A DNA stretch of 64,000 bases, taken from positions 64,001 through 128,000 of the forward strand of contig CAWCYI010000006.1 of assembly GCA_963799845.1 (NCBI GenBank). Direction: 5' to 3'. The position numbers were made by a program, and so were the translations under genes. The stretch comes from an uncultured Nitrososphaerota archaeon. GTDB lineage: Archaea; Thermoproteota; Nitrososphaeria; Nitrososphaerales; CADDZS01. This document shows, one piece after another, positions 17,828 through 56,347 of the stretch; within the stretch, counting starts at the first letter, position 1, and each line of letters opens with the position of its first letter. The notes beneath the pieces were generated by a model. That model ran no database searches and was not told the origin of the DNA. It saw only the letters and a program-made list of their open reading frames with translations.

Positions 17828-17923
17828 GCCGCCGTAGCTCAGCCTGGTAGAAGCGTGATCTTGAACGCCAATAGCAGCGGACTGTTAATCCGTTGGTCGA
17901 AGGTCCAAGTCCTTCCGGCGGCG
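17828..17923 (+). tRNA. tRNA-Asn(GTT) with 22-nt intron (17851-17872) at position 22/23
   Basis: Acceptor GCCGCCG/CGGCGGC, anticodon loop CTGTTAA. Removing AAGCGTGATCTTGAACGCCAAT restores D-stem GCTC/GAGC, with central helix UGGU/GCCA. No encoded CCA. Confidence 0.9.
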
Positions 17924-18025
17924 CATTTTTTCTTTAGGGAGTGATTCTCCGACTTTCTTCAAATAGAAGTTTTCATTGATTCATAAAGAAAAACTGCGTT
18001 TCACACACGTGAGCACTTTTTGGCC

Positions 18026-47248: not shown

Positions 47249-47863
47249 TCAGAGGGGTTTAATCGGTCTCCACTTTGCAATCTTGTAATAGATTACTTCG
47301 CCCCGCCTCTCGACGACAGCGACGACCGCTTCCTTTCCCATGGTCGACATCTCATCCACATGTTTTTTCAATTCCGACAGGCTCATCGTTTTTCCCTCGT
47401 TCAGACCAAACACGATGTATTTTGCAGCCTTGTTACCGTAGTCACCTCGATCGTAGACTCTAAAGTCGATGGGAAATCCAAAGCCCTCCCGAACCACATA
47501 GCCGCGGCTTCTAAGATCTCTAAATATCAAAAATCTTGTCCAGGCGTTCTCGTCTCGCTCCATTGCGAAGCTGACATAGTCGGTGAAATTAACCTTCCCA
47601 AGTTTGGTCGATTTGCTGGATTTCTTTGCCTTATCTTTCAGCGCAAGTTTGTTGCTGTACATCAAGTAAAGCACTTCGTAATCTTTAAGGTAAAACTGAT
47701 CGTTGTCCCTGATCCCAAATCCCTTGGATTCAAGTAATTGAGCATCCTCGCTGCGAGATAGGACTACATGGTCAACCCTTTTTGAATAGAAAGCTTCGAT
47801 AATTACCTGTTGTAAATCCTCATCTTTGCCTGTCCTTTGCGAACCTGAATTTCGATCGGACAT
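47249..47863 (-). CDS. endA: tRNA-intron endonuclease, probably the structural (beta) subunit
   Basis: FRDLRSRGYVV..GFGF..DFRVY, VIYYK; the catalytic Tyr and His positions appear replaced; own TATA-like box at ~47893-47900. Confidence 0.8.
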   Translation of the reverse strand: MSDRNSGSQRTGKDEDLQQVIIEAFYSKRVDHVVLSRSEDAQLLESKGFGIRDNDQFYLKDYEVLYLMYSNKLALKDKAKKSSKSTKLGKVNFTDYVSFAMERDENAWTRFLIFRDLRSRGYVVREGFGFPIDFRVYDRGDYGNKAAKYIVFGLNEGKTMSLSELKKHVDEMSTMGKEAVVAVVERRGEVIYYKIAKWRPIKPL

Positions 47864-48006
47864 ATCCGAAGATTCAGAATTCTTTTGGAATCTATATACT
47901 GGATTTGGATTTTCAGGTTCAGCGGGTTCCGAAATTGTCAAGGTCAATCAGCGAACATTAAAAAAGAATCTTTCGTGACATCTCAGTTTCAAATCTAGTT
48001 TATAAA

Positions 48007-52417: not shown

Positions 52418-52777
52418 ATGCGTAAATTTACAATGCGCCAACTTGACAATGGTCTTGAAGCAATTTTGATAGGCAGTCAAATATCGAACGCATTACAAAT
52501 AGAACCGCTTACTGTTCAGGAATTATCGGCATTAACTTATCATCCAGAATCCACCGTTTACAAACATCTTGCGAAACTGAATGAAGCGGGATATTTGGAA
52601 AAACATTTTGAAAATAGACAATGCTCTAATGGAGAAGGTCGAAAGTTTGCTGTTTATTCTTTGAAAGCGAAACCTATTGGATATATTCAGATAAACAAAT
52701 TCATGCTGAATAGACTAGAACGCAACTTGAGAAAAGAAGGTATCAATTGGAGTGTTCGAGAAACTAACTCAGGTTAA
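52418..52777 (+). CDS. Winged-HTH (ArsR/TrmB-like) protein, possibly the N-terminus of the integrase
   Basis: PLTVQELS...ESTVYKHLAKLNEAGYLE...GRKFAVYSL. Confidence 0.8.
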   Translation: MRKFTMRQLDNGLEAILIGSQISNALQIEPLTVQELSALTYHPESTVYKHLAKLNEAGYLEKHFENRQCSNGEGRKFAVYSLKAKPIGYIQINKFMLNRLERNLRKEGINWSVRETNSG

Positions 52778-53453
52778 TCAAGCGTGGCTTTGTGATTTCT
52801 CTTATCTTACTAGACGATTCGCCTATTCTGGAGTCTCTAACAGGAAATACAATCCTAATCCTTCTACGGAAGAATGGAGAGGACAATGGCATAAAACAGG
52901 TTCAAAGAAGAACCCTACATTTTATCCGAAATGGTCGAGATACAACTTTCGAGAGACTGAGAAATACGGTTCTCATAGAAATATTGCAATTTACGATAAA
53001 CCTATTCTCCTTTTTGCTATTCAGGATGCTTACAGTCGTTTCATTATCCATGCTCACTTAAGACAGTCTTCCAAAGAATTCGTAAACATGTCTCATACTT
53101 TCCCTAGATGGTTTGAGTTAGACGATTGTTTCAAAGAAGCGTTTGAATTTCAAAAACCATTGAAGAGACTAGGTAAACCGTTTGAGTTTCTTATGGATGG
53201 AATGATTCATAGATGGTATAGCAAAAAACTTGAAGGTAATTATTTCATTTCAAAAGCAGTAAAAGAAAAGAATCACTTTCTCTTATCTCCCTTAGACGCT
53301 TTCTTCGGAAGGATTCAAAACGAAATGAGAACCGAATTAACTAATAGAAATCTAACCAATTATGTTGATTACTACAATTACGAAAGACCTCATTCAGCAT
53401 TGAACGGAAAGACTCCAGCAGACTATTTCTTTTCGGGTAATGTCTTTTGGTAA
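52752..53453 (+). CDS. Divergent rve-superfamily integrase/transposase
   Basis: NQAWLCDF, IQDAYSRFII, FLMDG, PLDAFFGRIQNE, YYNYERPHSALNGKTP. Confidence 0.85.
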   Translation: MFEKLTQVNQAWLCDFSYLTRRFAYSGVSNRKYNPNPSTEEWRGQWHKTGSKKNPTFYPKWSRYNFRETEKYGSHRNIAIYDKPILLFAIQDAYSRFIIHAHLRQSSKEFVNMSHTFPRWFELDDCFKEAFEFQKPLKRLGKPFEFLMDGMIHRWYSKKLEGNYFISKAVKEKNHFLLSPLDAFFGRIQNEMRTELTNRNLTNYVDYYNYERPHSALNGKTPADYFFSGNVFW

Positions 53454-53456
53454 TCT

Positions 53457-53566
53457 ATTCTTTTAGGGCAGACGCGAAAGTGTGTGTGCATATTGGCACT
53501 CTCTCAGTCTCTCTTGGAGTCTCTTGGTCTCTCTGGGGCGCGCGGGCGCGTGAGTGGGGGGGGGGG
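53457..53566 (-). repeat. Right terminal inverted repeat (110 bp, G11 terminus)
   Basis: Reverse complement of 48007-48114. Confidence 0.97.
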
Positions 53567-53574
53567 TTTATAAA
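53567..53574 (+). promoter_or_regulatory. TATA box of mtnA and duplicated target site TTTATAAA (other copy at 47999-48006)
   Basis: Consensus archaeal TATA box 33 nt upstream of the ATG at 53608. Confidence 0.7.
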
Positions 53575-53607: not shown

Positions 53608-54751
53608 ATGGAAGGAAAACTGAACTTCTATGAACAAAGGACGATAAAATGGGATGAAAAGAAAAATTCTGTTGTAATGATAGATCAGACCTTACTGCCG
53701 GTAACGCTATCGTTTGTTGAATGTACCGACGTTTCACAAATAATTGATGCGATAAAAACCATGAAGGTCAGGGGTGCTCCTGCCATCGGTGTAACAGGGG
53801 CGATGGGAGTTGCACTGTCTGTTTTTGCTTCCGAATCTACAACCAAGAAAGATCTTCTTCGGGAGATTGAGCCCGATGTGATCGCTCTAAAGGCTGCAAG
53901 GCCAACCGCGATAAATCTCGCATGGGGAGTGGATAGGTCTGTCGATTATCTGAAAACTAAATTGCCGGAGCAGTTTGACCGGAATCTTCCCAGGCAAGAA
54001 CTGGTTGAATTTGTCAAAGATTTAGCAGATTATGACGTTGAAACCAACAAGAAACTATCTGATCTTGGTGCCAAGCTTTTCGTTCCGGCGACAGCGTACT
54101 GACTCACTGTAATTGAATTTCAGACGTTTCGAATGAAACCTTTGGATTCAGCAGATTGCAGGTGCGCTGGCAACAGTTGGATACGGAACTGCTCTGGGTG
54201 TTCTGAGATCAGTCGCAAACCAAGGTAAGACACTGAAAGTGTACGCGGCCGAGGCAAGGCCGGTACTTCAGGGAGCGAGATTAACAGCGTTTGAACTCAT
54301 TACTGACGGGTTCGACGTTACACTCATGCCCGACACTGCAATTGGGATCTCAATGCAAAGAGGAATGATAGACAGAGTAATCGTGGGAGCCGATCGCATA
54401 ACCAAGACTGGGCACGTCTTCAACAAAGTCGGGACATATCAGATTGCAGCCTTGGCGAAGAGACACAATGTCCCATTCTATGTCGCAGCTCCACTATCGA
54501 CTTTCGACTTTGAGACCAATTTGAAGGATGTAAAGATCGAGGAGCGCTCCCCGGACGAAGTGAGGAAAATGAGAGGTCAGCAGACGGCACCCGAAAACGT
54601 GCCAGTATTCAATCCAGCGTTCGACGTAACTCCTCCCGAGCTGATCACGGCGATCATTTGCGAAGAAGGAGTCCTAACAAAGCCATTCGCACCAAAAATT
54701 AATAGGTTAAAGAAAAAAGCGCTAAGACAGAAATTAGGGCCCGTAGCCTAG
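53608..54751 (+). CDS. mtnA: Methylthioribose-1-phosphate isomerase (eIF-2B-like), with a 44-nt intron and a probable 1-nt indel in the T-run at 54077-54080
   Basis: IDQTLLP, VRGAPAIG, ARPTAINL, LTHCN|AGALATVGYGTALG, EARPVLQGARLTAFEL, GADRI, NKVGT, NPAFDVTP; the joined product would be 366 aa. Confidence 0.88.
54113..54156 (+). other. Bulge-helix-bulge-type intron in mtnA mRNA
   Basis: Central helix CUGU/GCAG, bulges AAU and AUU, intron hairpin; canonical cuts restore the Asn codon AA|T. Confidence 0.8.
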
Positions 54752-54891
54752 CATGGAGCTAAGCGTAGACTCGCATCCGCGTGCATGAGATCCTGTTTTT
54801 GATCTGCATACATCAGGGCATCGTGTTTGCCTTCAACTAGCGTGCAAGCCTTCGGAGCCGGGGGTCGTGGGTTCGAATCCCACCGGGCCCG
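54737..54891 (+). tRNA. tRNA-Arg(TCG) with three introns (54757-54786 and 54787-54811 at 19/20; 54824-54847 at 29/30)
   Basis: Exons give GGGCCCGTAGCCTAGCATGG-ATCAGGGCATCG-GCCTTCGGAGCCGGGGGTCGTGGGTTCGAATCCCACCGGGCCCG (76 nt); each intron has a 4-bp helix with 3-nt bulges. Confidence 0.85.
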
Positions 54892-55040
54892 CTCATTTTG
54901 ACCAAGGTATCAACGGAGTTCTTTTCCTATCGTCTGGTATTGCCGTTTTCAATAATTGGTTATGCCCCGGAGTTGGGGAAATAGCATTCAGGGTTAAATC
55001 CCAAAAGCGATCTCATATTATGATTAGAGTTTAACCCATT

Positions 55041-55367
55041 ATGGAAACGTACAATCTGGTTCAATGTGTGGACTGGGGACTGAGCTCCTTCGGCGCAAAT
55101 ATGAAACAAGTCACATACTCGTTGTTCGCATCTCGGAAACGAATATCATCAAACGATATCTTATCTAATCCCGAGGAGTTTGTCAATGCTTTGAAAGATG
55201 TTTTCGGTCCTGGATACCCGCTAGCGGAACGCGCAATCGTGAAAGAAATAAAGAGCGAATTCGAGCTATTTTCTCCGTCCAAGTCAAACAGCCTTCTGGA
55301 CGTCCTGGAGAACGCGAAAAGCAAGATCGCCGAGATATCAGAGAACCCGAAGATCATCGTAAAATGA
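55041..55367 (+). CDS. Small helical protein (DUF3227-like), paralog 1
   Basis: VQCVDWGLSSFG...ILSNPEEFVNALKDVFGPG...ERAIVKEI. Confidence 0.7.
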   Translation: METYNLVQCVDWGLSSFGANMKQVTYSLFASRKRISSNDILSNPEEFVNALKDVFGPGYPLAERAIVKEIKSEFELFSPSKSNSLLDVLENAKSKIAEISENPKIIVK

Positions 55368-55909: not shown

Positions 55910-56347
55910 ATGGAAATGTCTGACCTAGTTCAATGCGTTGAGAAAGCGCTGAGTTCTTTCGGTATGAACATGAAGCAAGCCACATACTTCTCAATGGAAT
56001 CTCGAGAAGGAATGGGCTCAGACGAGATCTTATCGAATCCCGAAGCATTTATTCGCACGTTGAAAAATACATTTGGCCCAGGATATCAGCTTGCCGAACG
56101 CAGGATCGTAAAAGAAATAAACGCACTGTGCTCTCCATCCAAGTCATCCAATCTTCTTGACGCCTTGGAGATGGCGAAAGGCAAAATTACCGATTTCAGA
56201 GGCGATCGAGATTCTGCACAATTCATGAATTGGGCGGCAGCCAAGGGCCCAGAGCTGGACGCGGATGCTCAAGTGGCTCCAGTCGCTAATTTTGGTTCCG
56301 GGAACCTTACTGTAGCTTTTGTTCGACAGAAGAAAACTCAGAAATAA
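55910..56347 (+). CDS. Small helical protein (DUF3227-like), paralog 2
   Basis: Clearly similar to 55041-55367 over ~100 aa. Confidence 0.7.
   Translation: MEMSDLVQCVEKALSSFGMNMKQATYFSMESREGMGSDEILSNPEAFIRTLKNTFGPGYQLAERRIVKEINALCSPSKSSNLLDALEMAKGKITDFRGDRDSAQFMNWAAAKGPELDADAQVAPVANFGSGNLTVAFVRQKKTQK

Follow-up and report, generated by a model that had tools for sequence, protein, structure and literature searches.

Two bulge-helix-bulge (BHB) introns of archaeal mRNAs, one in cbf5 and one in the leader of HVO_1309, are the only ones named in the accessible portion of a 2023 review, which considers that more are likely to turn up (PMC10485636), and a 2020 paper, likewise available in part, treats the cbf5 intron as the one reported additional BHB intron and adds the HVO_1309 leader to it (PMC7714728). 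We analysed a stretch of 64,000 nucleotides (nt) from an uncultured Nitrososphaerota archaeon (contig CAWCYI010000006.1 of assembly GCA_963799845.1), called here the window, in which the gene mtnA is interrupted by 44 nt that can be folded with the flanking coding sequence into a BHB motif. The insert is probably a real, unreported mRNA BHB intron; a full-text literature search, with most subscription journals and supplements outside its reach, found no report of an intron in mtnA, and PMC13149111 and PMC12397907 contained nothing on the subject outside their reference lists. An initial annotation of the window had presented it as a second archaeal mRNA-splicing target, a count that does not strictly hold, since cbf5 and the 5' untranslated region of HVO_1309 are both already named in the available parts of the two sources (PMC10485636, PMC7714728). 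If spliced as its sequence suggests, the mtnA transcript would be one of very few known archaeal cases of mRNA splicing.

As far as the accessible text of the sources goes, the cbf5 intron of Crenarchaeota (Desulfurococcales and Sulfolobales) resembles the mtnA insert in having a relaxed motif, a patchy distribution with secondary losses and hosts with a hetero-oligomeric tRNA splicing endonuclease, EndA (PMC2738675, PMC10485636), and in lying within or beside a catalytic codon, in cbf5 inside that of an Asp (PMC2738675). The two differ in that mtnA encodes a metabolic isomerase and cbf5 an RNA-modifying enzyme, and in that the mtnA carriers are Nitrososphaerales/Thaumarchaeota, Bathyarchaeia, Caldarchaeum and Nezhaarchaeota; the cbf5 gene of the genome to which the window belongs (G000) is uninterrupted. 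Splicing of cbf5 has been shown experimentally, whereas that of mtnA is predicted. The HVO_1309 intron of Haloferax volcanii is, in the parts of the sources open to us, also an mRNA substrate of the tRNA splicing endonuclease (PMC7714728, PMC10485636). It lies in an untranslated leader, in a euryarchaeon with a homodimeric enzyme, whereas the mtnA intron would split a codon of the coding sequence. Non-canonical tRNA introns of TACK archaea (relaxed, HBh'/hBH) follow the same motif grammar and share the presumed enzymes, but the exon half of their motif consists of tRNA stems; in mtnA it is made of codons (His-Cys-Asn and Ala-Gly), so that its bases are fixed by the protein. In eukaryotes, the HAC1 and XBP1 mRNAs carry a short, spliceosome-independent intron that is cleaved by Ire1, with ligation by RtcB or Trl1 and a change of frame. 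The likeness to the mtnA prediction lies in a short mRNA intron removed by a protein endonuclease and a tRNA ligase, with a change of frame; the nuclease and the recognition structure are different, and the eukaryotic system is regulatory by design. Both XBP1 and RtcB are mentioned in the available portion of PMC8718801.

The interrupted mtnA gene and its BHB fold

The gene at 53608-54751 (plus strand) encodes MtnA, S-methyl-5-thioribose-1-phosphate isomerase, of an eIF-2B-related family, as identified with NCBIfam models. Against NF004700 (339 positions) an N-terminal frame covers profile positions 2-145 and a C-terminal frame 157-334; Pfam IF-2B is matched by both halves, and exon 2 by itself scores 257.9 bits against TIGR00524 (cut-off 185.85). 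Being half a protein, each part falls short of the equivalog cut-offs. The roughly 11 profile positions between the halves correspond to ...SGDSVLTHCN, which runs directly into an in-frame TGA at 54114-54116, straight after THCN, and the 3' part opens with AGALATVGYGT... from 54158. The initial annotation had described the motif LTHCNAGALAT as interrupted by 44 nt with an immediate in-frame TGA, and the translations, ...GDSVLTHCN followed by a stop and AGALAT..., agree with a motif split between THCN and AGALAT. The cysteine of THC is presumably the catalytic residue, matching Cys160 of the B. subtilis enzyme. The closest solved structures, found with an intron-less homologue from a genome of the same genus (G006) as query, are MtnA proteins (1t5o, 1t9k, 6a34 and 2yrf/2yvk). 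A search of G000 with the mtnA protein gave one match only, and no second, intact mtnA. Handles beginning with G, L and f denote other genomes, loci and families in the comparison, and counts out of 55 refer to a pooled, aligned set of 55 distinct intron-bearing sequences, scored on the structure stated here. The features of the gene and of the predicted intron are as follows.

53608-54112, plus strand: mtnA exon 1; begins at the ATG and runs through AA, the first two bases of the Asn codon; includes a 1-nt homopolymer error
54076-54079, plus strand: TTTT run, TTTTT in short-read contigs; homopolymer indel of the assembly
54092-54100 with 54161-54169, plus strand: distal exon-exon helix, CAGCGTACT with GGTGCGCTG
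54107-54110, plus strand: exon strand of the central helix, CUGU, formed by the last base of the His codon and the Cys codon; pairs with GCAG
54111-54113, plus strand: 5' bulge AAU; predicted cut after 54112
54113-54156, plus strand: predicted BHB intron, 44 nt, from sequence, junction comparison and cut register; present in the DNA of the X1 contig
54114-54150, plus strand: inner helix and apical hairpin, from the fold and from pair changes across relatives
54151-54154, plus strand: intron strand of the central helix, GCAG; invariant in 55/55
54155-54157, plus strand: 3' bulge AUU; predicted cut after 54156, with U54157 completing the Asn codon
54157-54751, plus strand: mtnA exon 2, a T and then AGALAT... 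up to the stop codon at 54749-54751; NCBIfam match

As assembled, the window shows mtnA in three frames, because a frame change near 54076, which the initial annotation had overlooked, lies upstream of the insert: the N-terminal frame (53608-54099) stops at 54100-54102, and GDSVLTHCN is read in another. One extra T stands behind position 54076 in both Logan contigs that cover it, one from each of two soil-metagenome runs (X1 and X2); the X1 contig spans 53569-54830 with the extra T as its sole difference from the window, and the X2 contig spans 53894-54126. The extra T joins ...KLFRSGDSVLTHCN to the N-terminal part in one frame, and two relatives (L002 and L003) have a single frame across the region. 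The presence of the extra T in the short-read contigs identifies the apparent frameshift as a homopolymer error of the 9-contig assembly. The X1 contig retains the 44-nt insert, which is therefore present in the DNA and not only in the assembly. Other apparent frameshifts in this 9-contig genome may share the homopolymer cause.

In the transcript, the exon CUGU and the intron GCAG form a central helix of four base pairs, three Watson-Crick and one G-U. The inner helix pairs TGAATTT (54114-54120) with GGATTCA (54144-54150), and the apical hairpin GTTTC-GAAT-GAAAC occupies 54126-54139. An unconstrained fold of 54086-54175 reproduces the structure, with a minimum free energy of -31 kcal/mol (z = -3.86; 0/200 shuffles as stable). 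The pairing of CUGU with GCAG, the 3-nt bulges AAU and AUU, the intron hairpin and the exon pairing that the initial annotation had listed are each found where it placed them, and the fold agrees. Its relaxed outer helix stands in part: exon pairing is predicted there, with 72% of cells paired across the 55 sequences and little informative covariation, but in the canonical register this distal helix does not abut the 3' bulge.

The comparison across relatives speaks strongly for a BHB intron in the mtnA coding sequence. Every cell of the central helix (columns 15-18 with 61-64) is paired, 220 of 220; three pairs (C:G, U:A and G:C) never vary, and at the fourth 34 sequences have U:G and 21 have C:G. 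Between the central and inner helices all 55 sequences have AAN, a 3-nt 5' bulge with the helix directly after it. The inner helix is 96% paired, and all five of its pairs change on both sides (in 9, 12, 25, 16 and 19 sequences), so that variants such as UGA.../...UCA, UAGCC/GGCUA, CAGCUC/GAGCUG and CGCGC/GCGCG are found at one place. Pairing over the whole structure is 83%, against 32-46% when partners are slid by 1-3 columns, and the covariation score of the alignment was reached by 0/500 shuffles. RNAalifold recovers the same core without being given the structure, and in an alignment-free count anchored on the bulge and GCAG, 251 of the 260 pairs are canonical, a figure that falls to 92, 51 and 74 in the slid controls.

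On the 3' side the mtnA motif is of the relaxed class. With the register shifted by one base, A:U (49/55) and C:G (54/55), then G:C (21/55) and C:G (35/55), can form, which leaves a 2-nt bulge; in the window, U54157 could pair with A54106 to the same effect. These exon pairs never covary, because they fall on codon positions (His, the third base of Asn, and Ala). The relaxed BHB class is cut only by (alpha-beta)2 and epsilon2 endonucleases, according to the accessible part of a source on these enzymes (PMC5829648).

The register of the cut, set by the encoded protein, is the decisive internal test. Cys-Asn-(Ala/Thr)-Gly is restored in all 55 sequences by only one register, in which the transcript would be cut after the second base 3' of the central helix on both strands:

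Cut after 0 or 1 base, both strands: Cys-Asn-(Ala/Thr)-Gly in 23/55
Cut after the second base, both strands: Cys-Asn-(Ala/Thr)-Gly in 55/55
Cut after 3 bases, both strands: Cys-Asn-(Ala/Thr)-Gly in 10/55

EndA reportedly uses this same register (Xue, Calvin and Li, 2006), cutting behind the second base of the bulge. The initial annotation had proposed the same cut, giving UGU AAU GCA in the window, and its register is borne out by the restored Cys-Asn throughout the set. The predicted splice leaves the active-site motif ThCNAGaLAT with its Cys intact in 55/55 sequences, two of them reading TLCN. A synonymous position also bears on the motif: the codon preceding Cys ends in C in all 55 carriers, this base being the partner of the G of GCAG, and among 16 non-carriers His precedes Cys in 11 (CAC in 7, CAT in 4), with Gln codons in the other five. 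Both exons are under purifying selection, with a ratio of non-synonymous to synonymous substitution (dN/dS) of 0.03-0.15 in exon 2 (6 pairs) and 0.09-0.19 in exon 1 (9 pairs), no ratio being taken from the 6 of 12 exon-2 and 2 of 11 exon-1 comparisons in which dS was saturated.

G000 encodes the enzymes that such an intron would need. Two genes match PF01974, the fold of the EndA catalytic domain, at 91.3 and 80.4 bits (cut-off 27), and RtcB is present at 575 bits. The two EndA genes are:

47249-47947, minus strand: EndA paralogue resembling the structural (beta-like) subunit; model matches: beta-subunit models and the first half of fused EndA models
G000:C6:28787-29023, outside the window: EndA paralogue, catalytic-like subunit; model match: second (catalytic) half of fused EndA models

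Judged by these model matches, the pair has the layout of a two-subunit enzyme. The beta-like gene lies 7 kb from the mtnA intron, and its catalytic-like partner is about 82 kb off on the same contig.

Distribution and history of the insert

Ten families, with 43 related genomes among them, have inserts of 19-46 nt at the identical phosphodiester. When 40 relatives were searched with the exon-2 protein, they showed many genes with an open frame over the C-terminal half only, and the junction could be read in 29 of 30 loci, L026 being unreadable: 13 have an insert exactly between THC-AA and Y-GCN, and 16, including that of G006, have none. In the order, 27 of 401 genomes contain a match to an insert pattern and none matches the reversed control, and a shorter variant outside this first pattern was found in four more f14 genomes. 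One of the 28 places of the first pattern (G011:C26, L038) lies inside an open reading frame (ORF) of 297 amino acids that is not mtnA, and was set aside as a chance match. Within the order there are 31 carriers among 349 mtnA-bearing genomes, distributed over six families:

f1: carriers 8/9, plus G000
f3: carriers 1/1
f11: carriers 9/9
f14: carriers 6/6
f18: carriers 2/2
f19: carriers 4/4

The insert pattern had no match in f4, f5, f6, f7, f8, f9, f10, f12, f13, f15 or f16, the three largest of these pattern-negative families comprising 78, 101 and 110 genomes with mtnA; with 150 of the 352 mtnA matches listed, absence from the large families is absence by patterns and not by gene-by-gene reading. 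In other orders of the class 1 of 57 mtnA-bearing genomes carries the insert (G403), and in other classes of the phylum 11 of 126 do (f37, 7/7; f48, 2/2; f38, 2/6); all 12 carriers outside the order were confirmed at sequence level. Two further candidates were rejected as interrupted genes, both having THCNAGALAT without an insert: in G528 the open frame (227 amino acids) is cut by the contig end, and in a second copy in G456 the stops lie elsewhere. This second mtnA-like copy (L088, G456:C22:2440-2800) has two TGA and two TAA codons inside the match and may be a decaying paralogue or contamination.

A census of one genome per species, covering 185,579 species with a pattern anchored on the intron's last bases and exon 2 only, found 51 loci, and a matching 5' half was present at all 51. 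As labelled, the carriers are Nitrososphaerales/Thaumarchaeota/Nitrososphaerota, Candidatus Bathyarchaeia, Candidatus Caldarchaeum, Nezhaarchaeota and Candidatus Pelearchaeum, with one Methylarchaceae archaeon, one Thermoprotei archaeon, five unclassified archaeal records and one 'bacterium'; all except the last are uncultured archaea. Pooled, these surveys of archaeal mtnA genes provide the 55 distinct sequences, from several classes, in which the insert is found and its inner helix covaries. Three Pelearchaeum-type loci (L085, L103 and L137) have T-L-C-N for T-H-C-N, with CTC for CAC, and retain the C that pairs with the intron GCAG.

A tree of exon-2 proteins (92 rows, 176 columns, quick search) was used to follow the history of the insert, leaving out nine intron-less rows in which the motif anchor was not located (L144, L147, L149, L169-L173 and L190). 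The genes cluster by family, as vertical descent predicts. The tree requires at least 11 changes of intron state, at least five of them forced by well-supported branches, against a mean of 29 with shuffled labels. The intron-less gene of G006 is nested in the intron-bearing f1 clade (support 97) and its junction is exactly that predicted after splicing, which looks like a precise secondary loss; losses of this kind have been proposed for the cbf5 intron in the available text of PMC2738675. In f38, the intron-less genes form one clade nested among carriers. Support is below 80 at 32 of the 89 inner forks and the deep branches are weak, so the tree makes no choice between repeated gain and a single ancient gain followed by many losses. 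As part of the explanation we favour, the intron is probably old, mostly vertically inherited within TACK archaea and precisely lost several times.

Proposed splicing and alternative explanations

We conclude, with a probability of roughly 0.88, that the mtnA pre-mRNA carries a BHB intron, made up of the 44 nt at 54113-54156. In the transcript, the exon bases C-UGU, from the end of the His codon and the Cys codon, would pair with the intron GCAG, flanked on one side by the 3-nt bulge AAU and the covarying intron hairpin and on the other by a short bulge, AU-U, and exon-exon pairing. A two-subunit EndA would cut after the second base of each bulge, and RtcB would join the exons and circularise the intron, giving the junction UGU AA|U GCA, the sequence ...LTHC-N-AGALAT... 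and a full-length enzyme of about 350 amino acids; on unspliced RNA, translation would end at the UGA one codon past the junction. The position of the insert, its structure and covariation, the single productive register, selection on both exons and the enzyme genes are observed; the cutting by EndA, the joining by RtcB and any regulatory meaning are inferred.

Several points weigh against this conclusion. The gene as assembled in the window is frameshifted, and the call of an assembly error comes from two low-depth contigs (4.87 and 2.5), which share their study with the probable source sample (X1). No listed sequencing run contains the stretch as RNA, and all carriers are, as labelled, uncultured. 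In the strict register there is no outer helix after the 3-nt 3' bulge, and the non-covarying exon pairs of that side neither support nor contradict a helix. Kinship among the sequences inflates the counts, and the shuffle controls are not probabilities. That the EndA of G000 would accept the mtnA motif is supposed from its genes.

Four other accounts of the locus were considered. In translational bypass of the phage T4 gene 60 type, the ribosome would leave before the UGA, skip the hairpin and land before GCN on uncut RNA. A stop directly behind the take-off codon (within two codons of Cys in 33/55) and a hairpin at the start of the gap would suit such a hop, but only 2 of the 55 sequences have identical take-off and landing codons, 45 take off from AAA or AAG (Lys), whereas all 16 intron-less relatives read have Asn there, and neither the invariant, exon-complementary GCAG nor the fixed 3-nt spacing would have a role; we regard bypass as very remote. 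A split gene, with halves made as separate polypeptides that assemble into the enzyme and the hairpin serving as a terminator or translational coupling element, would account for two halves that are both open and under purifying selection. It is hard to credit when an in-frame ATG, GTG or TTG lies upstream of exon 2 in only 2/55 sequences, the break falls inside one codon, so that the conserved Asn would be lost or replaced, a single cut register restores the motif, and insert lengths are unconstrained to any frame (19/24/12 modulo 3, so that the insert is not kept in frame).

The transcript might instead be cut and rejoined at these sites by a nuclease and ligase other than EndA and RtcB, or the element might work as an excised small RNA. 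The 3' bulge deviates from the canonical BHB and the part played by EndA is predicted here from genes, but a helix of 4 bp, a bulge of 3 nt and a cut behind the second base of that bulge make up the geometry of an EndA substrate, EndA and RtcB genes are present, and the loop of the intron has no conserved sequence, which argues against a function of the excised RNA; this we hold to be highly improbable. Most remote of all is a decaying or inactive gene or an assembly artefact, as the frameshift and in-frame stop of the window copy might suggest: independent assemblies yield the insert in 55 distinct sequences, dN/dS is well under 1 in both exons, and the frameshift is absent from the short-read contigs and relatives. 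A self-splicing group I or II intron was rejected on size, inserts of 19-46 nt comparing with a ribozyme core of hundreds of nucleotides, and a scan of the window with Rfam found no family at gathering score except one tRNA at about 17828-17924.

A broader version of the BHB-intron reading looks unlikely to us. It would have the intron predate the split of Nitrososphaeria, Bathyarchaeia and Nezhaarchaeota-like lineages and be kept by selection and not by inertia alone; MtnA would not be made without EndA and RtcB, so that salvage of methionine and S-adenosylmethionine would be gated by spare tRNA-splicing capacity, and mRNA BHB introns would survive only at catalytic codons, as beside the Cys here and inside the Asp codon of cbf5, where the protein freezes the exon half of the motif, which would amount to a predictive rule for further archaeal mRNA introns. 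The initial annotation had tied methionine salvage to tRNA-splicing activity; the tie stands only as a dependence, and a regulatory role would be hypothetical.

As a BHB intron, the insert would add a gene of central metabolism to the few archaeal cases of protein-assisted mRNA splicing, and soil and groundwater Nitrososphaerales and Bathyarchaeia to the lineages with mRNA introns. The broken or split appearance of mtnA in these metagenome-assembled genomes would then be explained, and metabolic reconstructions that score methionine salvage as missing may be wrong for that reason. The 55 natural variants already map the tolerance of the motif, and the shortest, of 19-25 nt, would be natural minimal substrates for relaxed-motif recognition by a two-subunit EndA. 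A second intron beside a catalytic codon would make the origin and retention of archaeal mRNA introns testable.

Genome-wide scan and neighbouring features

A scan of G000 for further mRNA introns, in which a strict BHB core had to fuse two open frames of at least 100 codons, gave 37,107 structural matches, of which 286 passed against 285 expected (199,992 random draws), and so no enrichment; 67 survive a codon-usage frame filter, most of them resembling ordinary gene junctions. Because of the assembly frameshift the scan misses mtnA itself, and its outcome carries little weight in either direction.

A possible TATA box of the archaeal kind can be read from the sequence some 35 nt upstream of the ATG of mtnA:

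53567-53574, plus strand: possible TATA box, TTTATAAA

The region 52752-53566 contains an ORF of 233 amino acids, on reading similar to a transposase or an integrase, that stops about 150 nt short of mtnA. Behind it come runs of low complexity (GT, CT and one of G) at about 53480-53566, and then the TTTATAAA box at 53567-53574.

Directly downstream of mtnA, a probable tRNA gene at 54737-54892 (plus strand) is missed by default ARAGORN and by Rfam. With introns allowed, ARAGORN reports tRNA-Thr(CGU) with a 64-nt intron, leaving 92 nt, and the gene may contain a second intron; Rfam at a permissive threshold gives partial, sub-threshold matches only, and single-deletion trials with ARAGORN gave 1,261 matches with conflicting identities. 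Contigs of other organisms (runs X1-X3) match only the ends of the gene, 54737-54757 and about 54855-54892, and their middles differ. The tRNA at 17828-17924 (plus strand, 97 nt) scores 53 bits with Rfam and is returned by ARAGORN as tRNA-???, its anticodon given as the four bases 'gaac'; this may be a further tRNA with an intron, or an unusual one. Further downstream of mtnA, two small ORFs at 55041-55367 and 55910-56347 (plus strand) have similar N-termini, M-E-.-.-.-L-V-Q-C-V-...-L-S-S-F-G-.-N-M-K-Q-.-T-Y, and represent a repeated small gene.

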